Shown: positions 24,623 to 45,066, numbered from the stretch's first letter. The stretch is DNA of 64,000 bases from Gammaproteobacteria bacterium (GCA_013152415.1 JAADGI010000034.1:13364-77363), one strand, 5' to 3'. Numbers and translations: made by a program. The notes: a model not told the origin generated them from the letters alone.

Positions 24623-24659
24623 CTTTTCTCTCTTTAATTTGGTGCGCTGTATGTCCAGA

Positions 24660-25190
24660 TTATTTCAATCGTATACCCGTTTTTTTAAGGATACGTGTAC
24701 TGTATAGCACATCGTTCGCACGACAATCTGCTCCAAGAATATGGCTGATCTCCTCAATTTTTTTCTCAACCTCGGGATGGCTTTGACCATGCACCATGAC
24801 AAAAAAATTATAAGGCCATTCAGGTAGATAGCGTGGACGTCGATAACAATGGCTGACAAAATCAAGGCGACCAATCTGGTGACCCAGGGCATCAACCTGT
24901 TCGTCCACAACATCCCAGACCGCCATACCATTAGCTTTATAACCCAAGGCAAAATGGTTTGGGATCGCACCGATACGTCGAATGGCACCTGAGCGTTGCA
25001 TGGCACGAATACGCTCCATAACCACCTCGGCAGACAGACCAAGTTTTATAGCCACAGCGTGATAGGGTTTCGACACCAACGGTAGCCCACCCTGCGTCTC
25101 GACAATAATGGCTCGATCTACAGGATCAACAAAAGAACTGTCGTCTGATTCGCCACACAGATCTTCTACTACTGAAATACTTGCAACCAC
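24660..25190 (-). CDS. nirH: Sirohaem decarboxylase subunit NirH (AsnC/Lrp-like)
   Basis: GTG start with AAGGTGA RBS. Lrp/AsnC-like fold. Assigned by order in nirDLGH. Confidence 0.75.
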   Translation of the reverse strand: MVASISVVEDLCGESDDSSFVDPVDRAIIVETQGGLPLVSKPYHAVAIKLGLSAEVVMERIRAMQRSGAIRRIGAIPNHFALGYKANGMAVWDVVDEQVDALGHQIGRLDFVSHCYRRPRYLPEWPYNFFVMVHGQSHPEVEKKIEEISHILGADCRANDVLYSTRILKKTGIRLK

Positions 25191-25249
25191 GTTATCTTCT
25201 CACCTTTGTATAAAATTTAATGCGTACGCCATTCTCTTGTTGGAAAGAG

Positions 25250-25287
25250 ATGCCTTTAAAAATATACCCTCGAAATTTTAAAGGCAT
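25250..25287. repeat. 12-bp perfect inverted repeat inside the AT-rich nirG-nirH spacer
   Basis: ATGCCTTTAAAA-N14-TTTTAAAGGCAT. Confidence 0.6.
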
Positions 25288-25394
25288 TATATAGCCGTAC
25301 AAATTTTCACTTTCTTTACTTTTGGCCTTCAAAAGTAACCGTAACGAAAGGTGCTTCCTGATGCAATGTAAATTTCCAACTAAATTAAACTTCC

Positions 25395-25841
25395 TTAAAC
25401 CTTGAATTTTAAACCCACAAAATATTCCCGCTCCTTGGGCATATTGTAAACGATAAACCCGGTTCTCTGTTCTATACCCGCAATCACATCATCTATCGCT
25501 GCTAAGGTTTCTGCAGCAATAACAAACCAGATGTTAAATTCGTGTGTACGCTCGTAGTTGTGCGCAACTTCGGGAAAACCGTTTATAACCCTTATTACCG
25601 AATGTAAATAGGATTTTGGTATCTTCATTGCCGCCAGCGTCACACAACCCCCCATCCGTTCAGTATGGAACAAGGGGCCAAATCGATTCAGCACCCCCTC
25701 ATCAAGCAATGCTTGCAGGCGCGTGGTGAGTTCAGATTCTGTCAAACTCAACATACCGGCAACCTTAGCAAAGGGCTGATCACAAACAGGAAAGCCTTCC
25801 TGTAGCGTATTGATGATTGCTCGATCCACGGTGTCCATCAT
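25395..25841 (-). CDS. nirG: Sirohaem decarboxylase subunit NirG (AsnC/Lrp-like)
   Basis: 148-aa Lrp/AsnC-like protein, assigned by order. Confidence 0.75.
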   Translation of the reverse strand: MMDTVDRAIINTLQEGFPVCDQPFAKVAGMLSLTESELTTRLQALLDEGVLNRFGPLFHTERMGGCVTLAAMKIPKSYLHSVIRVINGFPEVAHNYERTHEFNIWFVIAAETLAAIDDVIAGIEQRTGFIVYNMPKEREYFVGLKFKV

Positions 25842-26408
25842 TCAGTTCCCCACCCTGGCCGTTGGACAGAGATCAACAGCCCTTTCCGCCTCCACATACT
25901 GGTAAACGGCCCCCCTCTGCTTAAATCGACGACCACTAAAAAGCACTTCATGTGGAAATATTTTCAAATCACACGACCTGATCAGGTGATCTATATTATC
26001 CAATACCCGTTGTTGCTCACGACCATGGATCATGCAGTACAGATTATAAGGCCACTCGGGTAACTGCCGGGCCCGCCTGTAACAAAGTGTGACAAAACTG
26101 AATGTGCCCATTTTTTGACCCACATCAGCAACCTGGTTGTCCGGTATATCCCACACCACCATTGCATTTGCCCGGTACCCCAGTTCGTGGTGACGTACAA
26201 TTACGCCAAAACGCTTGATAGTAAGATTTTGACGAAGACGCTGCACAATTGCCACCACCTCGGCTTCGTCTAGTCCAACACGAGATGCAATCACAGCATA
26301 AGGCCGTGAAGTAATGGGCAGGCCATGCTGGAGTTCAGTGACAACCCTCTTTTCTTTGTCACCCATTGCCTCTGTTGATAGGGATAAAATATCTCTGGCG
26401 GTATTCAT
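25842..26408 (-). CDS. nirL: Sirohaem decarboxylase subunit NirL (AsnC/Lrp-like)
   Basis: 188-aa Lrp/AsnC-like protein that abuts nirG and overlaps nirD. Confidence 0.75.
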   Translation of the reverse strand: MNTARDILSLSTEAMGDKEKRVVTELQHGLPITSRPYAVIASRVGLDEAEVVAIVQRLRQNLTIKRFGVIVRHHELGYRANAMVVWDIPDNQVADVGQKMGTFSFVTLCYRRARQLPEWPYNLYCMIHGREQQRVLDNIDHLIRSCDLKIFPHEVLFSGRRFKQRGAVYQYVEAERAVDLCPTARVGN

Positions 26409-26926
26409 TTTTTCTGATCCAAACCCAGTTCAAAACCAAGATCAATGTGATAACTTTCTAACATAGGCAACGACAAAACCGGAAACCCACTCTCCTGCTC
26501 AATGTCGCGCAACACACTCTCAAGCTGCTCATCATCAGGCGCAGTAACAACAAACCATAGATTGTAATGGTGCGTACGCTCATAATTATGATTAACAGAT
26601 ACATAACTGCTGACCAGGTGGGCCACTTCCTGTAACTGTGCCGCCGGCACTGCCATGGTGGCGAGTGTACTGGTACCGATACGCTGTGGTTCAAATACCG
26701 CTCCGATACGACTTACCGTCCCCATTTTTTTTAGTTTTTGCAAAACATCAAGGACATCCTGCTCTGTAACACCCAGTTCCTGGGCGATACTGGCATAGGG
26801 GGTCGATGTGCCGGGAAAATCATGCTGAAAATTATTAAGCAACTGTTTCTCGATATTGCTCAATTCGGGAAAATGAGGGCCAGACGATGAACCACAAATT
26901 GAGTAAGTCTGGTTTTGTGTCTTCAT
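26405..26926 (-). CDS. nirD: Sirohaem decarboxylase subunit NirD (AsnC/Lrp-like)
   Basis: 173-aa Lrp/AsnC-like protein, first of four paralogous genes after nirF. Confidence 0.75.
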   Translation of the reverse strand: MKTQNQTYSICGSSSGPHFPELSNIEKQLLNNFQHDFPGTSTPYASIAQELGVTEQDVLDVLQKLKKMGTVSRIGAVFEPQRIGTSTLATMAVPAAQLQEVAHLVSSYVSVNHNYERTHHYNLWFVVTAPDDEQLESVLRDIEQESGFPVLSLPMLESYHIDLGFELGLDQKK

Positions 26927-26961
26927 TTTATACAGCCCCTTTCCAGTTCATCTGTATCCGG

Positions 26962-28155
26962 CTACAAGCCGATTTTGGTTGCCCTGGATGTGAAAAAGAT
27001 ACCGCTGGGCTTGTCTGCAGGGATTGAAGCAAGCCGTTGAAATGATACGGTATCGTAGATATCCACCCGATCTTCGTCACGAACCGAGATCCAGATCTTT
27101 TTCTCTTGCGATTGAAAGGCCATGTGCAGCACGGCTTTGCCCGGCACTAACTCACGTACGACCTTACGCGTTTCCGCATCAATCACCTGTACCGTATCAT
27201 TACGCGGATAGGCAAAATTGACCCAGACCTGTCGACCGTCTGGGCTGGCCATAACAAAAACGGGTTGGCCATGCACCGGGATTCGTGCAACCTCTTGCCA
27301 ATTGGACCGATCTACCACCAGGACGGTATGAGCCCCTACCGCAGGAACAAAAAGATAGTTACCCGCCTCAGCCCAGCCCTCAAGGTGGGGCATTTTGTAG
27401 ACGGGAAGCTTGCGTTCCCCTTTCCCGTATCCAGCCAGAATACGTTGAACACCGTTGTCGAGATTATCCAGATCTAATAATGCCAGGCCATCTTCACCAA
27501 ACAGTCCTGCGATATAGTAGCGGCCATCTGGAGTAATCAGGGCATCGTAAGGCTGACGACCGACGTTATGGAATTTACGAATACGCGGCTTGTCTGGATT
27601 ACGGATATCCGCTACCCAGATTTCGTCACCATCAAACAGGGTAAAAATAAATCGAGAACCCGGCGCATCCACCAGACCCACGACCCTCGATAGTGAGCCG
27701 TTAGCCATAGTCGCCGGAATATCGGCAACCAGCTTCAGTGTTTCTGATTCAAATATCCGCACACCACCCGGTTTGTAGTTCGACGCAGCAACCCAGCGGC
27801 CATCTTTCGAAATTGCCCCGCCGATACTATTGCCCGCCTGCAGCACACGCGAGACCACACCCTGGCGTAACATATCAATCTTGGTCAAACCACCATCACG
27901 CCCAAAGACATAGGCATAGCGTTGATCCGGGGAATACACCACCGAAGCATGTGACAAGTCTCCCAAACCACCGACCCTGGCCAATTCCTTGTGTTGTTTG
28001 ATATCGACCACCAGGACACTGCCCTTCGCCCGCTCAATAACAATGCCCAGGTCGTTAACATCAGGGGTGACGACACAAGCGCTGAGCAATAAAGGTGCCA
28101 TGACCGCGACGACAAAGGCCAACATCCTGACGATAGACCTGCTAGCGCTCGTCAC
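26962..28155 (-). CDS. nirF: NirF, haem d1 biosynthesis/binding beta-propeller protein
   Basis: Lipobox LLLSAC, cd1-like propeller without a haem c motif, position between nirC and nirD. Confidence 0.8.
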   Translation of the reverse strand: MTSASRSIVRMLAFVVAVMAPLLLSACVVTPDVNDLGIVIERAKGSVLVVDIKQHKELARVGGLGDLSHASVVYSPDQRYAYVFGRDGGLTKIDMLRQGVVSRVLQAGNSIGGAISKDGRWVAASNYKPGGVRIFESETLKLVADIPATMANGSLSRVVGLVDAPGSRFIFTLFDGDEIWVADIRNPDKPRIRKFHNVGRQPYDALITPDGRYYIAGLFGEDGLALLDLDNLDNGVQRILAGYGKGERKLPVYKMPHLEGWAEAGNYLFVPAVGAHTVLVVDRSNWQEVARIPVHGQPVFVMASPDGRQVWVNFAYPRNDTVQVIDAETRKVVRELVPGKAVLHMAFQSQEKKIWISVRDEDRVDIYDTVSFQRLASIPADKPSGIFFTSRATKIGL

Positions 28156-28507
28156 TGCCTTTGCCCTCTATTAAAACGCCTACAAGCCACGTCGCCTCCG
28201 CTTCAGAGAGTATCCCCTTCCAGGGTGGCATGGGTGTACCCGGCCGCCCATCAAGGATGGTGCGTAAGAGATAGGATTTTGCTTTACCGGCCAGTGCCTC
28301 AATGGTGAGCGCTGGGCCAAGCCCCCCCTTCAAACTCATCCCATGACAGGAACCACAATCGTGTTTGAGTAGGTGGCGTAATTCTTTCTGACGGGATTGA
28401 TCCGGCATGCCTGCCACGGCAAATAATCCATGGCTCAGCAATAAACTGAACATCACCACGCTCTTGAGCACATAAACCTTCCAACTACTGACCCAATGCG
28501 TGTACAT
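28142..28507 (-). CDS. nirC: Monohaem cytochrome c NirC (c55X)
   Basis: Signal peptide, CGSCHG, about 100 aa mature. Immediately downstream of nirS. Confidence 0.8.
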   Translation of the reverse strand: MYTHWVSSWKVYVLKSVVMFSLLLSHGLFAVAGMPDQSRQKELRHLLKHDCGSCHGMSLKGGLGPALTIEALAGKAKSYLLRTILDGRPGTPMPPWKGILSEAEATWLVGVLIEGKGSDER

Positions 28508-28517
28508 ACCAGACCTT

Positions 28518-28550
28518 AAAAAAAGTAGGGGGCGAACAATATCGCCCCCT
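28518..28550 (-). terminator. Stem-loop plus T-run downstream of nirS (partial terminator/attenuator)
   Basis: Minus strand reads AGGGGGCGA-tattgt-TCGCCCCCT followed by ACTTTTTTTAA. Confidence 0.6.
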
Positions 28551-28566
28551 ATTTATCGCTACTTAT

Positions 28567-30306
<1,740 letters not shown>

Positions 30307-30536: not shown

Positions 30537-32156
30537 TCATTTTACAATCTCCTTGTGTTGGGAAGTCATACTGTCCTTACGCTCCCGCCGCTTACGCAAA
30601 CGAACCAGGGGTGGACATTTATGCTCATTCCAATAGGTGACCTGACAGTCCAAACAATAGTGACACTCATTCTTATTGATTTGACCATTGGGGTCAATCG
30701 CCTGAACCTCACAAAGTATGGCACAAACCTGGCAAGGCTGCCCACATTCATTGTGCCGTCTAACCCAATCAAAGATCCTGTTTTGTGCGGGGATAATCAG
30801 CGCTGCCGCCAGGGGACACAAATATTTACAATAGAACTTCCTGTTAAATACCGAAATAGCCAGCAGGACAGCAGCATAAAGCACAAAGGGCCATTCCCGT
30901 TGAAACTGGAGCAATATCACGGTCTTAAAGGGTTCGACCTCGGCAAGGCGCTCAGCCTCAGATAGGGACTGCAACGAAACCCCGAACAAAATGATAAGGA
31001 TAATATATTTTAGTGCCCACAACCTTTCATGGACCACGTACGGAAACTCAATCTGACGCACATTGAAATGCCGTGAAATCTTGTTGATAAATTCCTGAAG
31101 GGCACCGAATGGGCACAACCAACCACAATAGACTCCTCGACCCCACAACAGCAGTGTAATGGCGACAAAACCCCAGAGGATGAAGATGAGGGGATCCAAG
31201 GCAAAGGTTTCCCAGTGAAAATCATGAAACAAAGCATGTACAAATGTCAGCACATTAACCACGGACAGCTGTGCCAAGGCATACCAACCAATGAAAAATA
31301 CCGTAAAAATCAGATAACCATCCCTCACATAGTCATACAACCTTGGCCGACGTACCAGCCAGTCCTGAAACAAAAGAATGATGGTGAGTAATAGCAGTGC
31401 TGTAACAAGAATTACGATCTGTATTGTTCGATCTCGCCAAATACTGACCCATACTGGCTCCACCGGGGCAACGCCGTCAGGCTGAACTGAAAGCGTGGTT
31501 TGGTTCACTTTGCTTGTAAGTGATCGTCCAAGTAAATTATTAACCTGCCCTTGCGCTGACACCAAGGGAACCGTTGCCGTTGTATTCTTTCTTGAAATAT
31601 CACGGGTGGCAGCCACTTTTCTGGCCGAATTTATAATCGTGGCATTGGCAACCATCACCGTAATCGTCGCACCGCTGATAGCATCGATACCTGTGGACCC
31701 GGCCTGCTTTTCACCACCGACACGGACACGATCAAAAATATTGATCCCTCTATATTGGTCGATATACCTTTTTAGTTGTTCCTCGGAGACACCCACCAAC
31801 AGAATAGGCTCGTGATGTTCAATAATCTTGACACCGGTAATACGGCCATCAAGATCAAGCCCGACCAACACATTGATCGGTTTTCCTGAATAGGCTGGAA
31901 TAGCCACTATTTCACTGGTCGCAAACACATAACCCAAAAGCTGCCCCTGGTTATAAACAGGTGCCGCTGACGGTTCCCCATCCATATCACCGACACGGGA
32001 CGCCCCAGGGAAAAATTCCCTGATTTCTGAATAATACTCGGGGCTATTTGCTACCGACGTACTCGCTAGAACAAAAGAGTTTACGGTAAGCAACAATACA
32101 CCCACCAGCAGGTAAAACCAGCGAATGACTGCTGGATTATGCATAAGCAGAACCAC
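30537..32156 (-). CDS. NosR/NirI-family membrane FMN/Fe-S protein (short form)
   Basis: Periplasmic FMN-bind motif (GIDAISGATITV), multiple TM helices, CPFGALQEF and YLCPLAA motifs, C-terminal Cys clusters (CGQPCQVCAILC, CHYCLDCQ). The start may be the ATG at 32144. Confidence 0.8.
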   Translation of the reverse strand: MVLLMHNPAVIRWFYLLVGVLLLTVNSFVLASTSVANSPEYYSEIREFFPGASRVGDMDGEPSAAPVYNQGQLLGYVFATSEIVAIPAYSGKPINVLVGLDLDGRITGVKIIEHHEPILLVGVSEEQLKRYIDQYRGINIFDRVRVGGEKQAGSTGIDAISGATITVMVANATIINSARKVAATRDISRKNTTATVPLVSAQGQVNNLLGRSLTSKVNQTTLSVQPDGVAPVEPVWVSIWRDRTIQIVILVTALLLLTIILLFQDWLVRRPRLYDYVRDGYLIFTVFFIGWYALAQLSVVNVLTFVHALFHDFHWETFALDPLIFILWGFVAITLLLWGRGVYCGWLCPFGALQEFINKISRHFNVRQIEFPYVVHERLWALKYIILIILFGVSLQSLSEAERLAEVEPFKTVILLQFQREWPFVLYAAVLLAISVFNRKFYCKYLCPLAAALIIPAQNRIFDWVRRHNECGQPCQVCAILCEVQAIDPNGQINKNECHYCLDCQVTYWNEHKCPPLVRLRKRRERKDSMTSQHKEIVK

Positions 32157-32587: not shown

Positions 32588-32601
32588 TTGACTTAAATCA
32601 A
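32588..32601 (+). promoter_or_regulatory. FNR/DNR-type box
   Basis: TTGAC-TTAA-ATCAA, about 100 bp upstream of the small plus-strand ORF at 32701. Confidence 0.55.
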
Positions 32602-32922: not shown

Positions 32923-34314
32923 TCATGTATCACGTCTGCCAGACTTCATGGCACTCAATACGATGATGAGAAACAAAAGACCGCCTAAGATAGCGATCAG
33001 GCCACCCAAGCCCATCAGCCCCATGGCTGTGATCTTTTCCAGGCCATCGAGACCTTGCTCAACACCGGCGACCTTGCGTTGAACACCGTAGCCCCCCGAC
33101 CAGACCAAACCTACCACGTGTAGAAGCTGTCCCCCCCCATACACATAGGGTTGGATCCGGGACCACTTGAGATGGGGGGCAGAATACCCAAGCCGGGGTA
33201 ACAGATCATAGGTCAAGCCCATCAGCGCCAGCGTGACACCGACGATAGAACCATGATAGTGCGCCGGAATAGTGACATTGCTACCCTCAATCAGAAACCC
33301 GATGACACCACCAAACCCAAATAAAAGCATCGAGGTCATCAGGGCCGAGCGGTGACACGCATATTCCTTTGCTGCTGGGGGACTCCTGAACCAGGCATAA
33401 AGCAGCGCCAAACCCAGGGGCAGAGTGGCCAGGCTGCCGCCGTACGCCATCAACCAGGTGAACAGCTTGATATGCTCTGCTGACGCCACCGGAAAGGCAT
33501 AGTAAATCAGCGGTGCCATGAACACGGTCACCAATCCCAGGAAGAACAGCAACACCACCACACGTGGACTCAGGGGCAAACGTATACCGGACACCGAGGC
33601 AAGCCACAGCCAGGCGATGAGCGTGAGCAAGGTATAGGTGAACTGGAGCATGTGCCCACCCCCCCAGAACAACAGCTCAAAATAAGCCTTGCCGGTAATA
33701 CCGCCGGGGAGTGCCACATAGGACCAAATAAAGGCCATTAAGACCATGACGGCCGATACGCTGACTGTATTCAGACCAAAGCGTAACGCACTTTTTGCCG
33801 TCATCCGCTGACCAACCGCAGGAATCGCTATCATGCTGCGACCAACCAGTAAGGCAAAACCAGCAGCAAACCCCAACAAACCAGCCAAAAACAGGGGATG
33901 ATCCAATACCGGAATATAATTACTCATCAATGGATGATCGGCACCGATAAAGGGTGATAGGGCCATTACCGCTGTACCCGCCGCTGCCAGAATAAAGGCC
34001 CCCCACCCCAGACGCATAAACCGTGCCGTGGAATTCAGGCTCCACAACAACCCGGCAAAGGCCAGAAACCAGACCAGCACCGATAAATCGACGTGGATCA
34101 CCAATGCAGTATGAAAAAAATCAACCCAGGGGAAAATATTTTGCAAATAAGGGGTGCGCGACAACACCAACATGACTGAAAAAAGACCGGACCCCAATAA
34201 GGCCATCAGACCCAGCCACAACCATGCCACCGCCAGTGTACGGCGGCTACCCGATGGAATGGGGGATATAAACTCGTGATCGTTTTCTTCTGCTGCTGTG
34301 GTGGTAATAGTCAT
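32923..34314 (-). CDS. Divergent haem-copper-oxidase (subunit I)-like membrane protein with a His/Glu-His non-haem metal site
   Basis: About 12 TM helices. Landmarks FHTALVIH74V, FWGGGH221MLQF, SAE280H281IKLF and PAH352YH354GS. No Tyr near H221. Confidence 0.7.
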   Translation of the reverse strand: MTITTTAAEENDHEFISPIPSGSRRTLAVAWLWLGLMALLGSGLFSVMLVLSRTPYLQNIFPWVDFFHTALVIHVDLSVLVWFLAFAGLLWSLNSTARFMRLGWGAFILAAAGTAVMALSPFIGADHPLMSNYIPVLDHPLFLAGLLGFAAGFALLVGRSMIAIPAVGQRMTAKSALRFGLNTVSVSAVMVLMAFIWSYVALPGGITGKAYFELLFWGGGHMLQFTYTLLTLIAWLWLASVSGIRLPLSPRVVVLLFFLGLVTVFMAPLIYYAFPVASAEHIKLFTWLMAYGGSLATLPLGLALLYAWFRSPPAAKEYACHRSALMTSMLLFGFGGVIGFLIEGSNVTIPAHYHGSIVGVTLALMGLTYDLLPRLGYSAPHLKWSRIQPYVYGGGQLLHVVGLVWSGGYGVQRKVAGVEQGLDGLEKITAMGLMGLGGLIAILGGLLFLIIVLSAMKSGRRDT

Positions 34315-34334
34315 CTCAATAATTTTTGCGTGGC

Positions 34335-34838
34335 TTATTTCAAAATAAAATTGCTAATTCCCTCGTCAAAATCTATGACAAGCACCTGACCGGGTACCAA
34401 CTCCACGTACTGTTCAAGAACGGAAGTATAGCCTTCCTCGGGGGAACGATCACCGAGCTGCACCTTCAGAAAGTGGCGTCCAGCCTTAACAGTGAACCGC
34501 CTGTAGGCACTGGAGGCACTGTCACGACTCATCCCTGATGGTTGCAAGGTCTCCCGGTACATCAGCTTGCCGTCCAGGCTCAGCTCCACACTCACCGCGT
34601 GACGCTCCCGGGGGCAAACAACCCGCTCCCGCATATTGGGTGCCAACTTTGCCAACTCCTCATCACTGCGCTCGTAGCAATCACCGACAGACTGCCCGGC
34701 GTGACTGAAGCTCAATTTGACGACCGCCTGGTCGGGTGCCAGGCGAACGTAGGCCGGGGAGGCAGAAAAATATCCTATCGTGACAGCAAAGAGCGTGTAC
34801 GCTATGAGTTGTCCGGCAAACTGACCTAGCTTAATCAT
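34335..34838 (-). CDS. N-terminally anchored 167-aa protein (possible subunit II analogue without a CuA motif)
   Basis: One TM helix (LIAYTLFAVTIGYF) plus a soluble domain. 8-nt overlap with the upstream gene and 20-nt gap to the downstream gene. Confidence 0.55.
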   Translation of the reverse strand: MIKLGQFAGQLIAYTLFAVTIGYFSASPAYVRLAPDQAVVKLSFSHAGQSVGDCYERSDEELAKLAPNMRERVVCPRERHAVSVELSLDGKLMYRETLQPSGMSRDSASSAYRRFTVKAGRHFLKVQLGDRSPEEGYTSVLEQYVELVPGQVLVIDFDEGISNFILK

Positions 34839-36363
34839 GGCCGACAGCCTTCAAACTAACACGAAAATCTTCTATCTTTTTCGTCAATTCCTTCTTCTGC
34901 AGCAGCCCTGTCCAGAGTATCCTGATCTGCTCACGTGCCACACGGGCACGAAGTACAGGTTCCCGCTGACCGTCTATCCGTTGATCTGTCCAGGTATTGC
35001 CGCGGCGGAAATAGCAATCTCCACCCGCACATCCGGTAATAAACACGCCACTCGCACTGCCCTCTTGCAATACATAATCAAGAAAGGAAGGAGGTAGCAT
35101 ACCAATACAGGGCAATGACAATGCCGCCACACCGCTATTCTGCACGGCCTTGACATCGGTCGCATGATCACAACCGTAAACCAGTATCCGCACATCGTCG
35201 GTCAACTGCTCCAACGCCACTTTAGTCTTTAAGCGAAGCTCCTTTATCTTTAACTGCGGCATATCGATTCCGCTGACCAGATCTTCAATGCTGCGAAAGG
35301 GCGTGGAGGCTGGGCAGGAGCCTGCACAGATGCCACAACTGGCACATAGGGACTGGTTGACAACCGCCTCTTCAAAACCCGGCCGTTTGCTGTGGGCTTG
35401 CATCGTAATGGCCTCGAACGGGCAATCGGCAAAACAGCGCCGGCAGCCGTTGCAGTTGTCGGGATCAACGACAGCAACCGGGGCCTTTTTGGCAGGGGGC
35501 AGCCAGGGTAATATTGTCAAAACCAGCGTGAGTCCACCGAGGAGCAGCCACAAGCCACCCGCAGACCAGACTTCGAGTAGGGGATAGGTCAATAAATAAA
35601 ACCAGTCCAGATTGATCACGCTGACCGCAATGTCCAGGTTCGCTGCTCCCCCCTGGCTCAGGGCCGGTCGAACCAAGGAAACGGCCAGTAGCGCACACAA
35701 GGTACCGATGGCCAGGGTACGCGATGGGTTGGTACGCGCCAGGGTGATTCTTTGGATATGAATCCACATAGCCAGCAGGAGCATTAGAGGGATTGCGATA
35801 TGCAAAAATATCAGTAGCGAGAAAAAGCGATCACTCAGATAGGCCTGGCTGAGAAAATTGCGCGCCATCGGTTTGGTAAAAATGGGCAACCAGTCCACCC
35901 ACTCCGCTGTTGTCACCGCAATATACTGCGCCAGCTTGTCCCACACCAACCAATACCCTCCGATACCGGAAGCAAATGCCAACCACAACAACGGTACACC
36001 CGTCACCCAGGAAAACCAGCGCGCGCCCCGGTAGCGATTAAAGGCAAACTCCCGAATAAGGTGGAGTGTCATGGTGACCACAAAGGCATCAGAGGCATAA
36101 CGGTGCAAGCTACGCATCACCCCACCGAGGTACCACTGCTCGTGGGTCAGGTACTCAACTGACTCATAGGCCGCCGTTGCACTGGTTTCAAAGAAGATGT
36201 ACAGATACAGGCCGCTGACAACAATAAGCCAGAAGAAATAGAACGACAACGCACCCAGCTGATGAAGGGGATTGCAGGTTTGCCCAAATACACGATTGAA
36301 TCCAGCATCCGCCAGATCGAAGAGTCGGCGTATGCCATGTTGAAAAAATGTTAGCAAGAACAA
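34831..36363 (-). CDS. Fusion protein: dihaem cytochrome b, 2x[4Fe-4S] ferredoxin and MvhD/FlpD-like domain
   Basis: Two His pairs spaced 14 residues apart (SLHRY..TLHLI and FLHIA..WIHIQ). CNGCRRCFADCP and CASCGICAGSCP. C-terminal VYGCDHA..LPCIGM..GCAGGDCYFRRGN. Confidence 0.8.
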   Translation of the reverse strand: MFLLTFFQHGIRRLFDLADAGFNRVFGQTCNPLHQLGALSFYFFWLIVVSGLYLYIFFETSATAAYESVEYLTHEQWYLGGVMRSLHRYASDAFVVTMTLHLIREFAFNRYRGARWFSWVTGVPLLWLAFASGIGGYWLVWDKLAQYIAVTTAEWVDWLPIFTKPMARNFLSQAYLSDRFFSLLIFLHIAIPLMLLLAMWIHIQRITLARTNPSRTLAIGTLCALLAVSLVRPALSQGGAANLDIAVSVINLDWFYLLTYPLLEVWSAGGLWLLLGGLTLVLTILPWLPPAKKAPVAVVDPDNCNGCRRCFADCPFEAITMQAHSKRPGFEEAVVNQSLCASCGICAGSCPASTPFRSIEDLVSGIDMPQLKIKELRLKTKVALEQLTDDVRILVYGCDHATDVKAVQNSGVAALSLPCIGMLPPSFLDYVLQEGSASGVFITGCAGGDCYFRRGNTWTDQRIDGQREPVLRARVAREQIRILWTGLLQKKELTKKIEDFRVSLKAVGHD

Positions 36364-36418
36364 ACCTCTATATTGGGCTACAACACCGCTATTTAACCTT
36401 GCTGCCCGACAAAGTCAT

Positions 36419-36432
36419 TTGATCAACATCAA
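36419..36432 (-). promoter_or_regulatory. Consensus FNR box of the cytochrome b-FeS-MvhD operon promoter
   Basis: TTGAT-CAAC-ATCAA inside the perfect palindrome CATTTGAT-CAAC-ATCAAATG (36416..36435). A TAAATA -10 lies 33 bp from the centre. 62 bp upstream of the start codon. Confidence 0.75.
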
Positions 36433-36510
36433 ATGATATTATTAAATAACACAATCATGAATGTTATTTCGCTAAATTGAGCATCCTTAATCACAATTTC
36501 AATGCTATCA

Positions 36511-37374
36511 CTAAGTCCCGTTGCGACGTTGCCCCCGCCATTCCCGGACAAGCCAGAAAAGCATGGAAATCAAAATAATCGCACCGATAAACACACCAAC
36601 AAATAGTGAGTAGTCAAAGTAATATCGGTCACTGCCAGGGTCGTAGACCGTACAGAACAAACGAATCCGGTTAGCCAGGGTAGTCAGCAATGAATCTGAT
36701 TTTGGTGTCCCAAGAACCAGCTCCTTTAACGGCTCTACTAATCGTGGCGTATCAGAGCGGGTTCCATTGATACCGTAGATTTGCCTGTACACCTTGCCGG
36801 CACCATCAACAAGCGTCGCTTGCAACAGGTGATCAAACCCATTGGGTGAACTGAAATACAGAAACCCGACCTCATTGACCAAGCGCCCGATTGTCTTTTG
36901 ATCCCCACTTAAAAACTTCCAACCTGGTTGGTTAATACCCTGTTGCCTTGCAAACTCGCGCATGGCATCCGAGGTATCGTTAGGGGTGTCAAAACCGATC
37001 GTTAGAACGTTAAAGCTGTCTTTACCCAGCACATCCCGTGCCTTATTTACAGCTTGGGCTAAGTGTCGCGTAGCTGTTGGGCAAACATGATAACAACTGG
37101 TGTAAATGAAGCTAATTAAAAGTGGCTTGCCAAGATAATCTGACAGCTTTACCGACTCGCCAGTCCGCCCGACCAAGACATACTCACCGATAGTATTACC
37201 AATTACGGCCTGACTGACTTTAAGCGCCGAGGCATTATCGAAGGTCTTTGGTTTAGATATCACCGGGCCTTCAGACGCACAAGCCCACTGCCCTATAGAC
37301 AACAACAATGGCAGCGCAACAAACCTAGTGGCTAGCCACCTCAACCGCGACCGTAAAGTCAAACACCGCCCCAA
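36511..37374 (-). CDS. senC: SCO1/SenC copper chaperone with C-terminal TM anchor
   Basis: Thioredoxin-fold motif FIYTSCYHVCP (CxxxC) and the downstream His of the SCO family. Confidence 0.85.
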   Translation of the reverse strand: MGRCLTLRSRLRWLATRFVALPLLLSIGQWACASEGPVISKPKTFDNASALKVSQAVIGNTIGEYVLVGRTGESVKLSDYLGKPLLISFIYTSCYHVCPTATRHLAQAVNKARDVLGKDSFNVLTIGFDTPNDTSDAMREFARQQGINQPGWKFLSGDQKTIGRLVNEVGFLYFSSPNGFDHLLQATLVDGAGKVYRQIYGINGTRSDTPRLVEPLKELVLGTPKSDSLLTTLANRIRLFCTVYDPGSDRYYFDYSLFVGVFIGAIILISMLFWLVREWRGQRRNGT

Positions 37375-38336: not shown

Positions 38337-40028
38337 TCAGCTGATACCCCAGGTTTCGGCAAGGAACTTCCAGTTGACGAAGTAGTAGAGGACAAAGGAA
38401 ACAAGAAATACAAGCGCCAACACAAAGGTGCCCGGGGCCACAATCTTGCCCATACCCACCCCTTCGTAGCTGGTAATCGGCTCAGCCACCAAGGGTGTTT
38501 CACCCTTCTCGGTCAGGCTCAAGCGCTTACCAAACAGTAGGGAGGCGACGATGATGCCGCAAAAGGCCGCACCACCGATAACGGCCAACACCACCGAGAT
38601 CCCCATAAGGCCCAGCAGGGTATAAGCGGTCTCTGGAAAGTTATGGGTAAACGCTGCACTCACAAAGGACAGGTCCCAGTGACGCCGTGGTACACCCAAG
38701 GTACCCGCCCCCATCATGAACACGGCCACACCTGACATCCCAAGAGCGAAGATGTACGGCTGCCATTTGGCCAGCCCCTTCATCACCAAATCCCGCCGAA
38801 ACAACACCGGCACTAACCAATACGTCAGGGCCATAAAGGCCAGGGTCGTACCGAGAACTACGGTGGCATGAAAATGGCCTGGTACGTAGATGGTGTTATG
38901 AATGATCAGGTTGATTTGCTCGGTACCCATGACCACCCCGGAGATACCCCCCAGAAAGCCAAAGAGGACAAGGGACATAAACACGCCCGAAAATGCCGGG
39001 TTGCCCCATGGAGCCTTGCGCAACCATTCGAACAGGCCCTTATTGAAACCACGCTTACGCTGGGATGCCTCAATGGCGCCCGGCACGGTCAAGCCATGAA
39101 TCATACTGGCCAACACCGCCAGATACATGGCGTAACTGGTGTTAAAAATCTTCCAGGTGGAACTGACACCTGGGTCCACCAAAATATGGTGGGCACTGGC
39201 CAGTTGTAAAAATATAATGTACAGCAAGAAGGCGGCCCGACTGACCTTCTCCGACAGTGGCTTAGCACCAAAAGCCACTGCCGCCACTGCATACCAAACG
39301 GCTACCATGGCAGCCATATTGATCTGCTGTGAAGAATGGCCGAAGGCCCACCAGATTACCCGATACATAAGCGGGTCAATCTCACTGATAAATCCTATCG
39401 AGAACAGAAAAGTTGGGATCAGGATAATCGCGCCGGATGCGATGGTAAATATGGCTATGATAGCCGCTGTCAAGGCACCAAAAGTCACCAGCGGTAGAGA
39501 ACCTTCATAGGTTTTCTCTGCTTTGGCGATGACCAAGGTCCCAAGAAATACGAAACACCCGAGCAACGCCCCAACGGCAAACACGATCAGACCCAGATAG
39601 AACATCGGGTCCGCCGACATGGGCACGTAAGAAGTAAACATGACACTGGAATTGCCCTGGAATACGGCAATATTATTGACGATTGCACCGATCAACATCA
39701 GGGCAAAAGCCAGCCATGCGATGCGCGGTGTCGCCAAGCGACAACCCAGCAGAGTAGATGAGCAGAAATACAACACTGCCATCTCAAAAAAGATGAGCCA
39801 ATAAATCAGGACATCAATACCGTGGGCAGTCAGTACCATATAAAAGTCACTGGCACCGAGCAAATGCACGGCTGGCCAACGCGTCAACCCAACGAGTAAG
39901 CCGAGAACACCACCGACCAACAGGAAGACAACCGCGACAACGGCGTTAATCTTCATTAACTTCTCCGCCGGTTTGTGGAACAACAGTCCGGTATCAGGAC
40001 AAGTACGGAATTCACTAGCAGTGGCCAT
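38337..40028 (-). CDS. B-family-like haem-copper oxidase subunit I lacking the cross-linked Tyr (candidate NO reductase of the sNOR/eNOR type)
   Basis: LTAHGIDV (helix II His), WWAFGHSSQQINM where ba3-type enzymes have GHPxVY, SAHHILVDPG (CuB HH) and VPGHFHATV (haem His pair). Confidence 0.85.
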   Translation of the reverse strand: MATASEFRTCPDTGLLFHKPAEKLMKINAVVAVVFLLVGGVLGLLVGLTRWPAVHLLGASDFYMVLTAHGIDVLIYWLIFFEMAVLYFCSSTLLGCRLATPRIAWLAFALMLIGAIVNNIAVFQGNSSVMFTSYVPMSADPMFYLGLIVFAVGALLGCFVFLGTLVIAKAEKTYEGSLPLVTFGALTAAIIAIFTIASGAIILIPTFLFSIGFISEIDPLMYRVIWWAFGHSSQQINMAAMVAVWYAVAAVAFGAKPLSEKVSRAAFLLYIIFLQLASAHHILVDPGVSSTWKIFNTSYAMYLAVLASMIHGLTVPGAIEASQRKRGFNKGLFEWLRKAPWGNPAFSGVFMSLVLFGFLGGISGVVMGTEQINLIIHNTIYVPGHFHATVVLGTTLAFMALTYWLVPVLFRRDLVMKGLAKWQPYIFALGMSGVAVFMMGAGTLGVPRRHWDLSFVSAAFTHNFPETAYTLLGLMGISVVLAVIGGAAFCGIIVASLLFGKRLSLTEKGETPLVAEPITSYEGVGMGKIVAPGTFVLALVFLVSFVLYYFVNWKFLAETWGIS

Positions 40029-40064: not shown

Positions 40065-40607
40065 TTATTCTGTAACGTAGATTCTACCGACCATTCTATG
40101 ATGGCCAATACCACAATATTCATTACAGACCACCGAGTATTCGCCCGCCTTGTTGGGGGTAATAGTCACTACCATCTCGTAGCCCGGGAGTACCTGTAAA
40201 TTGATATTAGCGGGTTGCAGTGAAAAGCCATGCTGCCAATCCAAGGAAGACAGGTGAAGACGATAACTCTTACCATTTTCAAGTTCCAGGACAGGCCACC
40301 AATCCCACAACCGCGCAAGCATATAGATGTCACTACCTGCGGGGGGCCGCACTACCGGAAAATCACGAGCGCCGTCGGTGCGAACGGTATACTGGTCTAC
40401 CATAGCCTGGACCTTCTTCTGGTATGCCTCGGCTGTAGTCTTGTACGCCTCACTCGACAAATTCTGTTTCCCGTAAACATGCCAGTAGGGCATCATGACA
40501 AACATCAAGACGGCCCAAAGTAAGGCGAGGAGAATCCACAGCAACTCGACCTTCTCGATAGGTTCTTTCCACCACAACCGATCTGACGGTGGCATTAATG
40601 CGCTCAT
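40065..40607 (-). CDS. Haem-copper oxidase subunit II with a complete CuA site
   Basis: N-terminal TM helix and cupredoxin domain with WQHGFS ... CNEYCGIGHHRM (H, C, C, H, M ligands), closely ba3-like. Confidence 0.85.
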   Translation of the reverse strand: MSALMPPSDRLWWKEPIEKVELLWILLALLWAVLMFVMMPYWHVYGKQNLSSEAYKTTAEAYQKKVQAMVDQYTVRTDGARDFPVVRPPAGSDIYMLARLWDWWPVLELENGKSYRLHLSSLDWQHGFSLQPANINLQVLPGYEMVVTITPNKAGEYSVVCNEYCGIGHHRMVGRIYVTE

Positions 40608-41167: not shown

Positions 41168-42133
41168 ATGGGCAACAATAACAAACAATTAAGGTTTTTT
41201 AGGGTGCTGGTTTTTATCTCCCTGCTGTTGACCTTGGTAGCAGTGGTGTTAAGCGCACACATAAGACTGGGTGGTATCGGGCTGGGATGCGGGGACTGGC
41301 CTCACTGCTTTGGGCAGATACCCGTGGCAAGCGCTACTGACACCATACCGACCACCCTGGCTGGTGTTGCACACCGTGTGACGGCGAGTCTCTTGGGCCT
41401 GTTGGTGATGGTGATTAGCGTCCTTGCCATACGCTACCGCGGTCAGACCGGCACCGGGCTGAGCGTGCCATTGCTTGCCTTCATACTGATCGTATTCTTG
41501 TCGGTTCTCGGCTTCAATACCCCCGCATGGCAAGCCCCGGCGGTCACTTTGGGAAATTTAGTCGGTGGCATGGCTTTACTGGCCCTGCTGTGGTGGATGG
41601 GCCAACGTTCCCTGACCGGCGAGGCAGTGACGGCAAACACGGGGGGCACTTTCAGACCCTGGGTACTGGTGGGAGTGGCGGTAATAACACTGCAAATCGG
41701 CTTAGGGGCCTGGACCAGCGCCAATTTTGCCGGCCCTGCCTGCTCACTTCCGGCTTGTACGCAAGACTGGATGTCCCTCTCCCAACTATTACAGGGATTT
41801 GACCTGACCCGTCGGCTGGCAGTAGATGGCCAGGGGAGGATTATTGTCGACAGCACCCAGGCAACTCTGCACATGGCGCATCGAATAGGTGCCCCGCTAA
41901 CACTGCTATACATCGGTGGCTTGGCAGTAATAATTTTACGCAAACACAAACCATTGCGCTCCACCTGTGTTGCCATCCTGTTTTTATTATTGGCCCAATC
42001 CAGCTTTGGGGTAACCGCAATCATGACAGAACTGCCACTACTGTTGGTAACCGCGCACAACGCAGTCGCGGCCCTGTTGTTACTGGCAATAGTCAACCTG
42101 CTTCATCGGCTGACACCCAAATCGATTAACTGA
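41168..42133 (+). CDS. ctaA: Haem A synthase (CtaA/COX15 family)
   Basis: 8-TM protein with the GLGCGDWPHCFG motif and conserved His residues. Divergent from the oxidase operon. Confidence 0.85.
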   Translation: MGNNNKQLRFFRVLVFISLLLTLVAVVLSAHIRLGGIGLGCGDWPHCFGQIPVASATDTIPTTLAGVAHRVTASLLGLLVMVISVLAIRYRGQTGTGLSVPLLAFILIVFLSVLGFNTPAWQAPAVTLGNLVGGMALLALLWWMGQRSLTGEAVTANTGGTFRPWVLVGVAVITLQIGLGAWTSANFAGPACSLPACTQDWMSLSQLLQGFDLTRRLAVDGQGRIIVDSTQATLHMAHRIGAPLTLLYIGGLAVIILRKHKPLRSTCVAILFLLLAQSSFGVTAIMTELPLLLVTAHNAVAALLLLAIVNLLHRLTPKSIN

Positions 42134-42172: not shown

Positions 42173-42721
42173 TTACAACCAGAAAACCGGGTAGTGGCGT
42201 CTGGGGTTGGCTGAGATATTATTTACAATCAGCGCCACCAACAACATGACAAGAATACCCGATGCAATGGGTGACAACACATACATATAACCCAACTCAT
42301 GCACATGTGAACTGCCAATCACCGCTATCAACGCCGTCGCGCCACCCGGGGGGTGGAGCGTCTTGCTAAGATGCATAATCACGATGGCCACTGAAACAGC
42401 AACTGCCCCGGCAAGGGCAGTATCAAATGAGATCACCTTGTACACCGTGACTCCGACGATAGCGGACACAAGGTGCCCTCCCACCAGATTTCTGGGTTGT
42501 GCATATTCCACCCTGGGGGCACCATAAATCAGTACTGCCGATGCGCCAAAAGAGCCCACCAGAAGTATCTGATCATAACCTGAAAACTGGAAGTATTTGC
42601 CCAGCAAGGAGGTGGCGTATATCCCAACGAATGCACCCAGCCATGACCAGGCTACTTCACTCAATGGTTTTCTTGCCGGGCTCTTTTCCACACCCCGCAT
42701 ACGTGAAATATATTTTTTCAT
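42173..42721 (-). CDS. HPP-family membrane protein
   Basis: 182 aa, four TM helices, signature LHPPGGATALIA. Confidence 0.8.
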   Translation of the reverse strand: MKKYISRMRGVEKSPARKPLSEVAWSWLGAFVGIYATSLLGKYFQFSGYDQILLVGSFGASAVLIYGAPRVEYAQPRNLVGGHLVSAIVGVTVYKVISFDTALAGAVAVSVAIVIMHLSKTLHPPGGATALIAVIGSSHVHELGYMYVLSPIASGILVMLLVALIVNNISANPRRHYPVFWL

Positions 42722-42810: not shown

Positions 42811-42824
42811 TTGATCGACATCAA
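42811..42824. promoter_or_regulatory. Consensus FNR box between the HPP gene and PFOR
   Basis: TTGAT-CGAC-ATCAA, centred 96 bp upstream of the HPP start and 288 bp upstream of the PFOR start. No convincing -10 on either strand. Confidence 0.65.
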
Positions 42825-43104: not shown

Positions 43105-45066
43105 ATGATCGAAGATAAAGAATTTCCATACCCAGGTACGGCCACCACCACCGACGGCTCAGGGGCTGTCGTCTGGGTAGAGACCCATATCTCCGGGGCG
43201 GCCTGCGCCTACCCCATCACACCCTCGACAGGAATGGGCAACGGGTACCAGTTGGCAGCCGCCAATGGCCAGTCCAATCTCTGGGGTCAACCGCTATTTT
43301 TTCTGGAACCGGAATCGGAGCACAGTTCGGCCTCAGCCTGCGAGGGTTACACCCTGGCCGGTGGCCGCGTCACCAATTTTAGTTCCGGTCAGGGCCTGGT
43401 GCTCATGACCGAGGTGCTCTACACCATTGCCGGCAAACGCCTACCGATAGTTTTTCATATCGGCGCACGCGCACTCACATCGCACTCACTCAATGTCCAT
43501 GCCGGTCACGATGACGTCATGTCTGTGGCCGACACCGGCTGGGGCATGTTATTTGCCCGCAATGCGCAAGAGGCCCATGACCTGGCCCTGATCACTCGAC
43601 GGGCAGCCGAGTCTTCGTTTACGCCATTCATGAACATACAAGATGGCTTTCTAACGACGCACACCATCGAAAAAATAAACCTGGCAGAACCCGAAATGAT
43701 GACCACGTATATTGGTGATCCACGCTCGCGGCTCGCCACGCTATTTGATCCGGAAAAGCCGCTGATGACCGGTGTGGTACAAAACCAGGATGCCTACATG
43801 AAGGGCAAGGTCGCCCAGCGCTTCTTTTATGATCGGGTGCCGGCTCAATTGCAAGAGGCCTTCGATCACTTCCATGAACTCACGGGCAGGAAATACGGCC
43901 ACGTTGATGCTTACCGGCTAGAGGACGCTGACTACGCTATTATCGGTATGGGCTCGGTGATGGATACCGCTATCACTGCCGTCGACTGGATGCGTAAAGA
44001 AAAGGGCTGGAAGGTGGGGGCGCTAAACATTACCGCCTTTCGCCCCTTTCCAGGCAAACACATTATCAATGCCCTCAAAAATTGCCAGGCAGTGTCCATT
44101 ATCGAACGCATGGACAATCCACTGGCCAAGGACAACCCCCTGACCACTGAGGTCAAGGCCAGCTTTGCCGATGCCGCCACAGGTGCCGAGGGCTACCACA
44201 AAATGGACACCCTACCCCGTATCCATTCTGGTGTTTATGGCCTCGGCAGCCGTGATACCCGGGTCGGTGATTTGATTGCGGTCACCGAAAATATGGTCGC
44301 CCAGGGGCGGCAGTTTTTCTCCCTGGCCATCGACCACCCCACCGCGCTACCCCGCGTCCACAACCCGGATGTACGCCCCGGTGGTGCCTTCTCCATGCGG
44401 GGGCACTCCATTGGTGGTTATGGCTCGGTGACCACCAACAAGATTATCGCCTCACTGGTAGAAGATATCTTTGGCCTCTACGTCCAGGCCTATCCCAAAT
44501 ACGGCTCGGAAAAAAAGGGGCTGCCAACGACTTACTACCTGACCGTAGCCGGACAGCCTATTCTCGAACACTCAGAGTTGAATCACGTGGAATTCGTTCC
44601 CCTGAATGATGTCAACGGTTTCATTTCCAGCAACCCCCTGGAGGGTCTGGTAGACGGGGGTTGTATCTTTATCCAGAGCCGCTTTAAGACCGATACCGAA
44701 GTCTGGGCACATGTCCCCAAAACAGCACGCAAGATCATCGTCGAACGCAATATCCGAGTGCTTTACCTGGATACCGTCAAGATCGCCAAGCAGGTAGCGC
44801 ACTCCGCCGACCTGCAGTTACGCATGCAGGGTGTTGTCCTGCTGGGTATCTTTTTACGCATAGCCCCCTTTGTCAATGACCGGGCCTTATCAGAAACAGA
44901 ACTATTCGAGGCGATAGAAAAAACCGTCAAAAAATATTTCGGTCGCCGCGGCGATCAAGTCGTAGAAGACAACATGACGGCTATCCGCTTCGGTTATCAC
45001 GACGTCAATGAAATTGATTTTTCCAGCTTGACGAGCAAAACAACTGCGCACACCCTGATAGATTGA
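43105..45066 (+). CDS. Pyruvate/2-oxoacid:ferredoxin oxidoreductase, large subunit (domains I-III)
   Basis: TDGSGAVVWVETHISGAACAYPITPST..., EPESEHSSASACEG, and a C-terminal gamma-like domain. Confidence 0.85.
   Translation: MIEDKEFPYPGTATTTDGSGAVVWVETHISGAACAYPITPSTGMGNGYQLAAANGQSNLWGQPLFFLEPESEHSSASACEGYTLAGGRVTNFSSGQGLVLMTEVLYTIAGKRLPIVFHIGARALTSHSLNVHAGHDDVMSVADTGWGMLFARNAQEAHDLALITRRAAESSFTPFMNIQDGFLTTHTIEKINLAEPEMMTTYIGDPRSRLATLFDPEKPLMTGVVQNQDAYMKGKVAQRFFYDRVPAQLQEAFDHFHELTGRKYGHVDAYRLEDADYAIIGMGSVMDTAITAVDWMRKEKGWKVGALNITAFRPFPGKHIINALKNCQAVSIIERMDNPLAKDNPLTTEVKASFADAATGAEGYHKMDTLPRIHSGVYGLGSRDTRVGDLIAVTENMVAQGRQFFSLAIDHPTALPRVHNPDVRPGGAFSMRGHSIGGYGSVTTNKIIASLVEDIFGLYVQAYPKYGSEKKGLPTTYYLTVAGQPILEHSELNHVEFVPLNDVNGFISSNPLEGLVDGGCIFIQSRFKTDTEVWAHVPKTARKIIVERNIRVLYLDTVKIAKQVAHSADLQLRMQGVVLLGIFLRIAPFVNDRALSETELFEAIEKTVKKYFGRRGDQVVEDNMTAIRFGYHDVNEIDFSSLTSKTTAHTLID

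Follow-up and report, generated by a model that had tools for sequence, protein, structure and literature searches.

We analysed three adjacent genes in a 64,000-nucleotide stretch of DNA from a Gammaproteobacteria bacterium (GCA_013152415.1, JAADGI010000034.1:13364-77363), the whole of which is called the window below. Open reading frame (ORF) 1 encodes a cytochrome b fused to an iron-sulfur (FeS) module, ORF2 a small membrane-anchored protein and ORF3 a relative of subunit I of the haem-copper oxidoreductases (HCO). A first-pass annotation, made from the sequence alone, had taken these genes for a stand-alone three-gene enzyme that reduces nitric oxide (NO). Comparison across genomes gave a different picture: they are the conserved distal genes of a six- to seven-gene cluster that encodes an NO reductase (NOR) of the eNOR type. 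The three genes are:

34831..36363, minus strand: ORF1, dihaem cytochrome b-2x[4Fe-4S]-MvhD fusion; 510 aa, TTG start; Pfam and NCBIfam matches
34335..34838, minus strand: ORF2, N-terminal membrane anchor and beta-rich domain; 167 aa; alignment of 27 homologues
32923..34314, minus strand: ORF3, paralogue of HCO subunit I with 12 transmembrane helices; 463 aa; COX1 match, fold and profile comparison

When the ORF positions were re-read, the tight head-to-tail packing first described was recovered exactly, with ORF1 and ORF2 overlapping by 8 nt and ORF2 and ORF3 separated by 20 nt.

ORF1 and ORF2

Pfam found in ORF1 a cytochrome b domain (Cytochrome_B, PF00033, residues 31-204, 66 bits), two Fer4 domains and a FlpD/MvhD domain (PF02662, residues 398-508, 49.6 bits), the composition that had been read from the sequence. 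The Fer4 motifs, CNGCRRCFADCP and CASCGICAGSCP, are of the CxxCxxCxxxCP type. With NCBIfam, the cytochrome b part aligned to b6/ExtP-type cytochromes and the C-terminal half to the ferredoxin-MvhD end of HdrA2 (NF040770, positions 570-773). All 16 cofactor ligands were invariant among 26 homologues, namely the four haem histidines (H85, H99, H186 and H200, in pairs 14 residues apart), the eight Fer4 cysteines and the four MvhD cysteines (C396, C417, C443 and C448). By these signatures ORF1 is a dihaem cytochrome b with six transmembrane helices, a predicted transmembrane wire ending in a cytoplasmic FeS chain of two predicted [4Fe-4S] clusters and an MvhD-type [2Fe-2S] domain. The FeS/MvhD part would lie in the cytoplasm because of the positive-inside rule and because a natural fusion (P0361, described below) joins the cytochrome b part to a subunit-I-like protein, subunit I starting in the cytoplasm. 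The true start codon is likely the second TTG, at 36357, which gives a protein of 508 aa; it is preferred for its better spacing from a GAGG motif and its agreement with database entry P0121.

Two known arrangements resemble parts of ORF1. MvhD and the C-terminal module of HdrA2 have the same order of two [4Fe-4S] motifs followed by a four-cysteine MvhD/FlpD domain, whereas in ORF1 a membrane dihaem cytochrome b precedes this module within the same protein and no HdrA flavoprotein or hydrogenase gene lies nearby. Rieske/cytochrome b complexes share the four-helix bundle and the spacing of the two histidine pairs, but ORF1 lacks their Rieske partner and Qo domain: Pfam and NCBIfam detected no Rieske gene in the cluster and no cytochrome b C-terminal (subunit IV/Qo) domain in ORF1, where FeS domains follow instead.

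Public annotation calls homologues of ORF1 'hydrogenase iron-sulfur subunit' or 'cytochrome b N-terminal domain-containing protein', names that are misleading, as are those given to the ORF3 family. The eNOR clusters of Betaproteobacteria carry an ORF1 paralogue in which Fer2, FAD_binding_6 and NAD_binding_1 domains, as in the BenC/MmoC-like oxygenase reductases, replace the 2x[4Fe-4S]-MvhD part (examples at L022:5363-7303 and L069:11404-13299). It is usually accompanied by a second ORF2-like gene, and at the L069 locus a 133-aa ORF stands between it and the haem A synthase gene ctaA. Of the two cytochrome b proteins the window, in common with most Gammaproteobacteria, has only the MvhD-type one; the FAD/NAD paralogue and PerM, a further gene of the Ferrigenium eNOR operon described below, are absent.

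ORF2 had no match in Pfam, NCBIfam or PDB. Its single transmembrane helix, noted earlier, is an N-terminal anchor with positive charges on its N-terminal side. The accompanying statement that no metal motif could be seen had to be revised: among 27 homologues C54 and C75 never vary and H46 hardly does, and these residues are candidate ligands or, in the case of the cysteines, a candidate disulfide pair. A single-sequence model was of low confidence (pLDDT 54) and its Foldseek matches were generic beta-sandwiches, which allows 'beta-rich' at most. ORF2 is probably a membrane-anchored beta-sandwich protein on the periplasmic side. We also tried it as a degenerate cupredoxin-type subunit II and rejected this, as hhalign against subunit II returned a probability of 0.3%.

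ORF3 is a subunit I paralogue without a canonical binuclear centre

The earlier proposal that ORF3 derives from the HCO superfamily and has about 12 transmembrane helices was borne out. ORF3 matched Pfam COX1 over its full length with 33.7 bits, just below the cut-off of 34.8. In an AlphaFold2 (AF2) model (pLDDT 77.6, pTM 0.84) the top Foldseek matches were to ba3 oxidase subunit I (TM-score 0.73, E 1.6e-6), with cbb3 and cNOR lower. A family profile was built from 38 diverse members, only 33-50% identical to the window protein; hhalign aligned it to the family of the neighbouring eNOR-like subunit I over 435 columns (probability 99.85%, E 7e-31). Neither the ORF3 sequence nor the family profile found a match in the PDB, even at an E-value of 10, so that the kinship with HCOs is visible only by fold and profile-profile comparison. 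NCBIfam has no model for ORF3 and the plasmid collection yielded no relative. The family is a large one, distinct from others, and comprises 1,683 clusters at 50% identity when matches with E up to 1e-3 are admitted.

In the 38-member alignment W31, R53, H74, W82, Y133, H221, M289, H352, Y353 and K414 are invariant, while H354 and R413 are each missing from a single member (37 of 38). H74 and H354 align to the low-spin haem ligands (H69 and H387 of the neighbouring HCO), H352 to the high-spin haem ligand (H385) and H221 to the helix-VI CuB histidine, the only CuB ligand that is kept. R413-K414 align to the arginine pair that binds the haem propionates in HCOs. The histidine landmarks had thus been placed correctly, as had the lack of a tyrosine next to H221: the position of the cross-link tyrosine is taken by F225.

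The metal site that had been proposed fared differently. E280-H281 had been put at the position of the CuB His-His pair, but aligning the ORF3 profile with that of the neighbouring HCO family puts the helix-VII pair at I270-Y271. E280 occurs in 18 of the 38 diverse members and H281 in 10; both lie about 10 residues past the His-His position, at the start of helix VIII, and H281 is invariant only within the close eNOR-linked subfamily. As the pair is replaced and only H221 is kept, ORF3 is, on these alignments, a degenerate paralogue of B-family/eNOR subunit I without a canonical CuB/FeB site, predicted to be able to hold a low-spin and a high-spin haem.

Measured against subunit I of the Thermus thermophilus ba3 oxidase (1XME/1EHK), ORF3 has the same 12-helix fold, the histidines of both haems, the first CuB histidine, the propionate Arg/Lys pair and Tyr133; it differs in lacking the helix-VII His-His, the cross-link tyrosine and a subunit II partner. 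The suggested overlap with gNOR, a proposed NOR, cannot be upheld. Both are HCO relatives with an active-site histidine replaced, but gNOR exchanges one CuB histidine for Asp and has a cupredoxin-fold subunit II, whereas ORF3 loses both helix-VII histidines and ORF2 shows no cupredoxin similarity. With I270-Y271 at the pair, E280 and H281 not conserved and no cupredoxin partner detectable, the His/Glu-His site and the gNOR analogy fall together. The putative 'N2O reductase' HCO family of Murali et al. was likewise considered for ORF3 and not favoured; from its description that family is cNOR-related, while ORF3 is nearest to the B-family/eNOR enzymes.

One subgroup of ORF3-like proteins (P0380, P0418, P0457, P0473, P0482 and P0499) has a C-terminal extension of about 200 aa with tetratricopeptide repeats (TPR); one of these proteins matches the CcmH/CycH TPR model.

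The genes upstream encode an eNOR-type NO reductase

It had been stated that the window holds no NOR. Directly upstream of ORF1, on the same strand, we found genes for subunit II and subunit I of an eNOR-type enzyme, followed by ctaB and senC, with ctaA divergent from the subunit II gene:

41168..42133, plus strand, divergent from the eNOR genes: haem A synthase (CtaA/COX15); Pfam COX15-CtaA, E 1.2e-37
40065..40607, minus strand: eNOR-type subunit II, 180 aa, one transmembrane helix and CuA cupredoxin domain; NCBIfam CoxB and NosZ C-terminal matches
38337..40028, minus strand: eNOR-type subunit I, 563 aa, B-family-like HCO; COX1, 234.8 bits
37359..38228, minus strand: haem O synthase (CtaB/CyoE); TIGR01473, 264 bits, cut-off 210
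36511..37374, minus strand: SCO1/SenC copper chaperone; Pfam SCO1-SenC, E 5e-15

The solved structures closest to this subunit I are B-family oxidases (7deg, E 9.7e-52; Thermus ba3, about 1e-48). Its GHSSQQ aligned to GHPVVY of the B-family oxidases, which places Q235 at the active-site cross-link tyrosine. The His-His pair (280/281) and the HxH motif (385/387) are kept, and H231, Q235, H280, H281, H385 and H387 are invariant in the family. In subunit II, H126 and the CuA motif C161-x-E163-x-C165-x3-H169-x2-M172 are invariant among 16 homologues. Signature residues at the active-site tyrosine position are Gln in eNOR, Asn in sNOR and Asp in gNOR (PMC8756737, Table A4). Because the tyrosine position holds Gln, and the His-His pair, the HxH motif and the CuA site are intact, the upstream genes are assigned by sequence to an eNOR-type NO reductase. 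An sNOR, suggested by the norSY-senC-orf1 cluster of ammonia-oxidizing bacteria, was rejected, as the residue is Gln and not Asn. A homologue search seeded with the upstream subunit I returned matches without informative names.

eNOR is a haem-A-containing NOR of the CuA type; the enzyme from Rhodothermus marinus has been shown to reduce NO, uses haem As and is active, when purified, with N,N,N',N'-tetramethyl-p-phenylenediamine (TMPD)/ascorbate, and ctaA is found in many eNOR operons (Murali et al. 2024, PMC11214002). The NO reductase of the window is the upstream eNOR, not ORF3.

The gene order is conserved across Gamma- and Betaproteobacteria

A pattern scan of GTDB species-representative genomes found an ORF3 relative in at least 593 genomes; the synteny counts were taken from the best 80 of these at least 593 species hits. 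Across the Gamma- and Betaproteobacteria of these 80 loci the order subunit II-subunit I-(ctaB)-senC-ORF1-ORF2-ORF3 recurs on one strand. The window has it too, reading subunit II-subunit I-ctaB-senC, a box for the regulator FNR, then ORF1-ORF2-ORF3. Among the 43 loci with at least 9 kb of flank, 38 have subunit II and an eNOR-like subunit I upstream in the same orientation, and ORF1 is within 2.7 kb in 55/66 loci. The neighbourhood survey does not support a stand-alone three-gene enzyme. A metagenome scan seeded with distant ORF3 family members gave 47 loci of at least 6 kb, 26 of which have the eNOR-like genes, and contigs labelled Methylomirabilis, among others, have the same gene order.

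A variant occurs in Thiogranum/Thiohalobacter, where ORF1-ORF2 remain behind senC and ORF3 lies a few kb off, head-to-head with ctaA. At one locus of the Thiogranum type (L001:11399..14044), ORF3 leads a small cluster with a 104-aa ORF, a second SCO1, a 131-aa and a 253-aa ORF without Pfam match and a hemerythrin gene, in divergent orientation to ctaA. A hemerythrin gene also lies between ORF1 and ORF2 in the Methylomirabilis-labelled contigs (L082:3828-4220). Two NIR_SIR genes (sirohaem/4Fe-4S nitrite/sulfite reductase type) follow ORF3 there (L082:6557-8894) and at an unlabelled locus (L085:11562-13912).

Gene neighbourhoods and fusions link the ORF3 family to haem O/A synthase genes

Three kinds of sequence evidence speak for a connection of the ORF3 family with haem O/A and HCO biogenesis, and not with NO chemistry. 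The first is given by natural fusions. In P0494 the partner of an ORF3-like protein is a genuine haem O synthase (TIGR01473, 250 bits, cut-off 210); in P0361 a full ORF3-like protein (56%) is joined to the membrane domain of a cytochrome b of the ORF1 type (41% identity with residues 3-300 of ORF1). The second is the proximity of ctaA: of 44 related loci at least 15 kb long, 28 contain it, often divergent from subunit II or ORF3 or directly downstream of ORF3. The third comes from distant ORF3 relatives, which stand convergent at the ends of aa3-type operons (COX2, COX1, CtaG, COX3, SURF1, CtaB, CtaA, SCO1) or head-to-head with ctaA; no eNOR, ORF1 or ORF2 was found within range of the examined loci. 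NO had been named as the substrate of ORF3 on account of flanking nir genes, and this does not fit relatives that keep company with aa3 oxidase and haem O/A synthase operons instead of nir or nor genes.

In the literature searched we found no description of a link between a CuB-less subunit I paralogue and haem O/A synthase genes, nothing on MvhD together with haem-copper enzymes and nothing on CuB-less subunit-I-like proteins. The link seen here, judged from gene content and alignments, joins such a paralogue to genes for haem O/A synthases in either setting, eNOR or aa3.

An FNR-type box precedes ORF1

The spacer between senC and ORF1 contains two further features:

36416..36435, senC-ORF1 spacer: FNR/Dnr-type box, perfect palindrome CATTTGAT-N4-ATCAAATG; exact TTGAT-N4-ATCAA match
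36390..36395, minus strand: candidate -10 hexamer TAAATA; sequence reading

Both had been reported and were found again. The centre of the palindrome lies 62.5 nt ahead of the ORF1 TTG, and TAAATA, at 36395..36390, would put it at about -42.5 relative to the putative transcription start; the position of a class II FNR site is -41.5. Sites matching TTGAT-N4-ATCAA with at most one mismatch number 9 in the window against 2.4 expected, and none of 100 shuffles reached 9. A box of this kind is present in the senC-ORF1 spacer of 18/52 related loci, where roughly 0.4 would be expected by chance, as derived from the window-wide box rate; in related loci without it the spacer is only 15-40 nt long. With a CRP/FNR-family gene and a full nirS cluster in the window as well, an FNR/Dnr-type promoter ahead of ORF1 is plausible. 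Since gene order is conserved and some loci have the box in this spacer, ORF1-3 form a sub-operon of a larger unit, with a predicted low-O2- or NO-responsive promoter of its own in some lineages.

Comparison with described eNOR operons

The first-pass annotation had not recognised the three-gene architecture as a characterised enzyme. It remains true that a function has been tested for no protein of these three families, but the parts themselves have been listed. A preprint on Ferrigenium straubiae KS (bioRxiv 10.64898/2026.01.22.701106) describes an 'eNOR operon' with eNOR II, eNOR I, haem o synthase, sco1, a cytochrome b-FeS-FAD-NADH protein, an 'eNOR scaffold protein of unknown function' and PerM, together with a cytochrome b/FeS protein annotated 'ferredoxin/F420-reducing hydrogenase delta subunit'. 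The scaffold protein is a hypothetical protein in IMG with KO K02274, 'cytochrome c oxidase subunit I'. Products of the operon, including the scaffold and the ORF1-like protein, were detected in the proteome. Under denitrifying conditions the scaffold gene reached about 300 transcripts per million (TPM) and the ORF1 homologue about 50-100 TPM, with eNOR II at more than 10,000 TPM; the ORF1 homologue was about 10-20-fold higher than in micro-oxic growth. The authors propose a quinol:NAD+ oxidoreductase or a supercomplex, suggest that the energy of NO reduction is used for reverse electron flow, and raise the puzzle that an enzyme requiring haem A(s) is made during near-anoxic denitrification (same preprint).

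The eNOR cluster represented by the R. marinus enzyme and the Ferrigenium operon agrees with the window in its CuA subunit II, Gln-type subunit I, haem O synthase, sco1, COX1-like protein and cytochrome b/FeS protein, and likewise in having ctaA often nearby and a denitrification context. In contrast to the Ferrigenium operon, the window has no FAD/NAD paralogue or PerM, and ORF1-3 are contiguous behind an FNR-type box of their own. The gene set is thus already recognised as accessory genes of the eNOR cluster, uncharacterised as these are, and it is not a new NOR.

Possible roles of ORF1-3

We favour, with a probability of about 0.5, a role of ORF1-3 as an accessory redox and haem-handling module for the maturation of a haem-A enzyme, induced at low O2 or by NO. 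ORF1 and ORF3 would form a membrane complex that serves this maturation and not NO reduction itself. ORF3, resembling subunit I, would accept haem O/A or serve as a 'scaffold' for its hand-over in concert with CtaB and CtaA, and could hold the farnesylated haem on its way from these enzymes to eNOR subunit I. ORF1 would supply or remove electrons for the conversion of haem O to haem A or for its hand-over. The internal FNR/Dnr-type promoter may raise the level of the module at low O2 or with NO, when the O2-dependent supply of haem A would be limiting.

A functional analogy exists in eukaryotes. Yeast haem A synthase, Cox15, works with the ferredoxin Yah1 and its reductase Arh1, the conversion of haem O to haem A thus needing an FeS electron-transfer partner, and Surf1/Shy1 is a haem a chaperone, haem a needing a hand-over factor. 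ORF1, the Fer2-FAD-NAD paralogue and ORF3 stand beside ctaA and ctaB and show no homology to Yah1, Arh1 or Surf1. This need for a ferredoxin and a ferredoxin reductase fits a maturation role, as does the BenC/MmoC-like ORF1 paralogue beside ctaA in Betaproteobacteria. The sub-stoichiometric expression of the Ferrigenium scaffold and ORF1 homologue relative to eNOR II was counted on the same side.

Several points weigh against a maturation role. Its whole basis is the gene neighbourhood and two fusions, and the known maturation steps are already covered by ctaA, ctaB and senC, which leaves the remaining task of the module undefined. ORF1 and ORF2 stay with eNOR-senC when ORF3 moves to ctaA, and the aa3-linked ORF3 relatives occur without ORF1 and ORF2; because the genes separate in this way in evolution, the three proteins need not act as one unit. 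The distal H221, the ligand-channel Y133 and the K-channel-like T286 of ORF3 would also suit catalysis or ligand sensing. The eNOR assignment of the upstream enzyme rests on one signature residue and operon equivalence rather than on a curated set of HCO hidden Markov models, and the Ferrigenium 'scaffold protein' is equated with ORF3 from its annotation rather than its sequence.

The strongest competitor, which we hold only tentatively, is that ORF1, ORF2 and ORF3 (with the FAD/NAD paralogue in Betaproteobacteria) form a respiratory electron-transfer module or supercomplex with eNOR, carrying electrons from the quinone pool or NAD(P)H/ferredoxin to NO reduction, or driving reverse electron flow. 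The invariance of every ORF1 cofactor ligand would be expected of such a wire, which the two haem sites of ORF3 could extend, and P0361 joins just these two parts. ORF1-ORF2 always follow senC in the eNOR operon, and both the proposal of the Ferrigenium authors and the 10-20-fold rise of the ORF1 homologue under denitrifying compared with micro-oxic growth point the same way (10.64898/2026.01.22.701106). However, eNOR has its own CuA entry for periplasmic donors, the purified R. marinus enzyme is active with TMPD/ascorbate (PMC11214002), and Ferrigenium transcript and protein levels are far under those of eNOR I/II (10.64898/2026.01.22.701106). A module of this kind also fails to explain the ORF3 relatives that lie by aa3/ctaB genes without ORF1 or ORF2, one of them fused to a haem O synthase.

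It is unlikely that ORF3 is itself catalytic, with a non-canonical site made of the high-spin haem, H221 and Y271 (plus H281 in the eNOR-linked subfamily) that would act on NO or another small N/O species with ORF1 as donor. The conserved fold, haem ligands, distal H221 and Y133, a Thr at a K-channel-like position, a neighbourhood rich in nirS, NnrS, hemerythrin and NirI/NosR-like genes and the FNR-type box ahead of ORF1 would all accord with this. On the other hand, two of the three metal ligands are lost family-wide, E280/H281 are not conserved, a cupredoxin or cytochrome c partner is not detectable, a complete eNOR is encoded next door, and the distant members go with aa3 oxidase biogenesis genes and not with N-oxide genes. 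Least probable is a haem-based membrane O2/NO sensor that tunes expression or activity of neighbouring respiratory genes: the open high-spin haem pocket without a second metal and the co-occurrence with NnrS, hemerythrin and CRP/FNR-family genes would suit one, but ORF3 lacks a domain for output (TPR, cytochrome b and haem O synthase being all that its family adds to the core) and the tight operon linkage is to biogenesis genes.

A bolder form of the maturation role, to which we give little credence, is that the ORF3 family and the cytochrome b-FeS protein are a missing factor for maturing haem-A enzymes when O2 is scarce or absent. Conceivable routes would be oxidation of haem O on the subunit-I-like scaffold with electrons leaving via ORF1, capture of trace O2 and its channelling to CtaA, or O2 derived from NO. 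Any of them, if true, would explain how a haem A(s)-dependent eNOR is assembled in near-anoxic denitrifiers.

The question matters beyond this locus, as much of the N2O produced in the environment is thought to come from eNOR-type enzymes (Murali et al. 2024, PMC11214002), whose gene clusters in nearly all cases include these three uncharacterised genes. Roles for the CuB-less subunit I paralogue and the cytochrome b-FeS-MvhD protein would fill a gap in the assembly of haem-A enzymes at low O2 and improve annotation.

Other genes and FNR-type boxes of the window

Downstream of ORF3 lie a NirI/NosR-like gene, nirS and haem d1 genes. The NosR/NirI-like gene (30537..32156, minus strand), directly ahead of nirS, encodes a membrane FMN/polyferredoxin protein; it scores 706 bits with the NosR model against a cut-off of 1000, and its N-terminus is shorter than in NosR. 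The 767-nt gap between it and ORF3 has no long ORF and contains an FNR-like box with one mismatch, TTGACTTAAATCAA, at 32588..32601. The cd1 nitrite reductase cluster is complete (21828..30303, minus strand) and comprises nirS, a nirF-like gene, three NirD/L/G/H-like genes, a nirJ-like radical S-adenosylmethionine gene and a nirN-like gene. Beside it, in divergent orientation, is the CRP/FNR-family regulator gene (21066..21815, plus strand), with FtrB and Fnr as its best NCBIfam matches.

Two more exact TTGAT-N4-ATCAA boxes were found on the other side of the eNOR cluster. One, at 42811..42824, lies between a gene for an HPP-family membrane protein (42173..42721) and a 2-oxoacid:ferredoxin oxidoreductase-like pair (43105..46658), which is followed by an NnrS gene (46743..47939). 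The other, at 50109..50122, lies between a phosphotransferase-family gene (49065..50063, plus strand) and a GGDEF-EAL gene (50652..52586, minus strand). Taken together, the two boxes suggest a wider low-O2/NO regulon.

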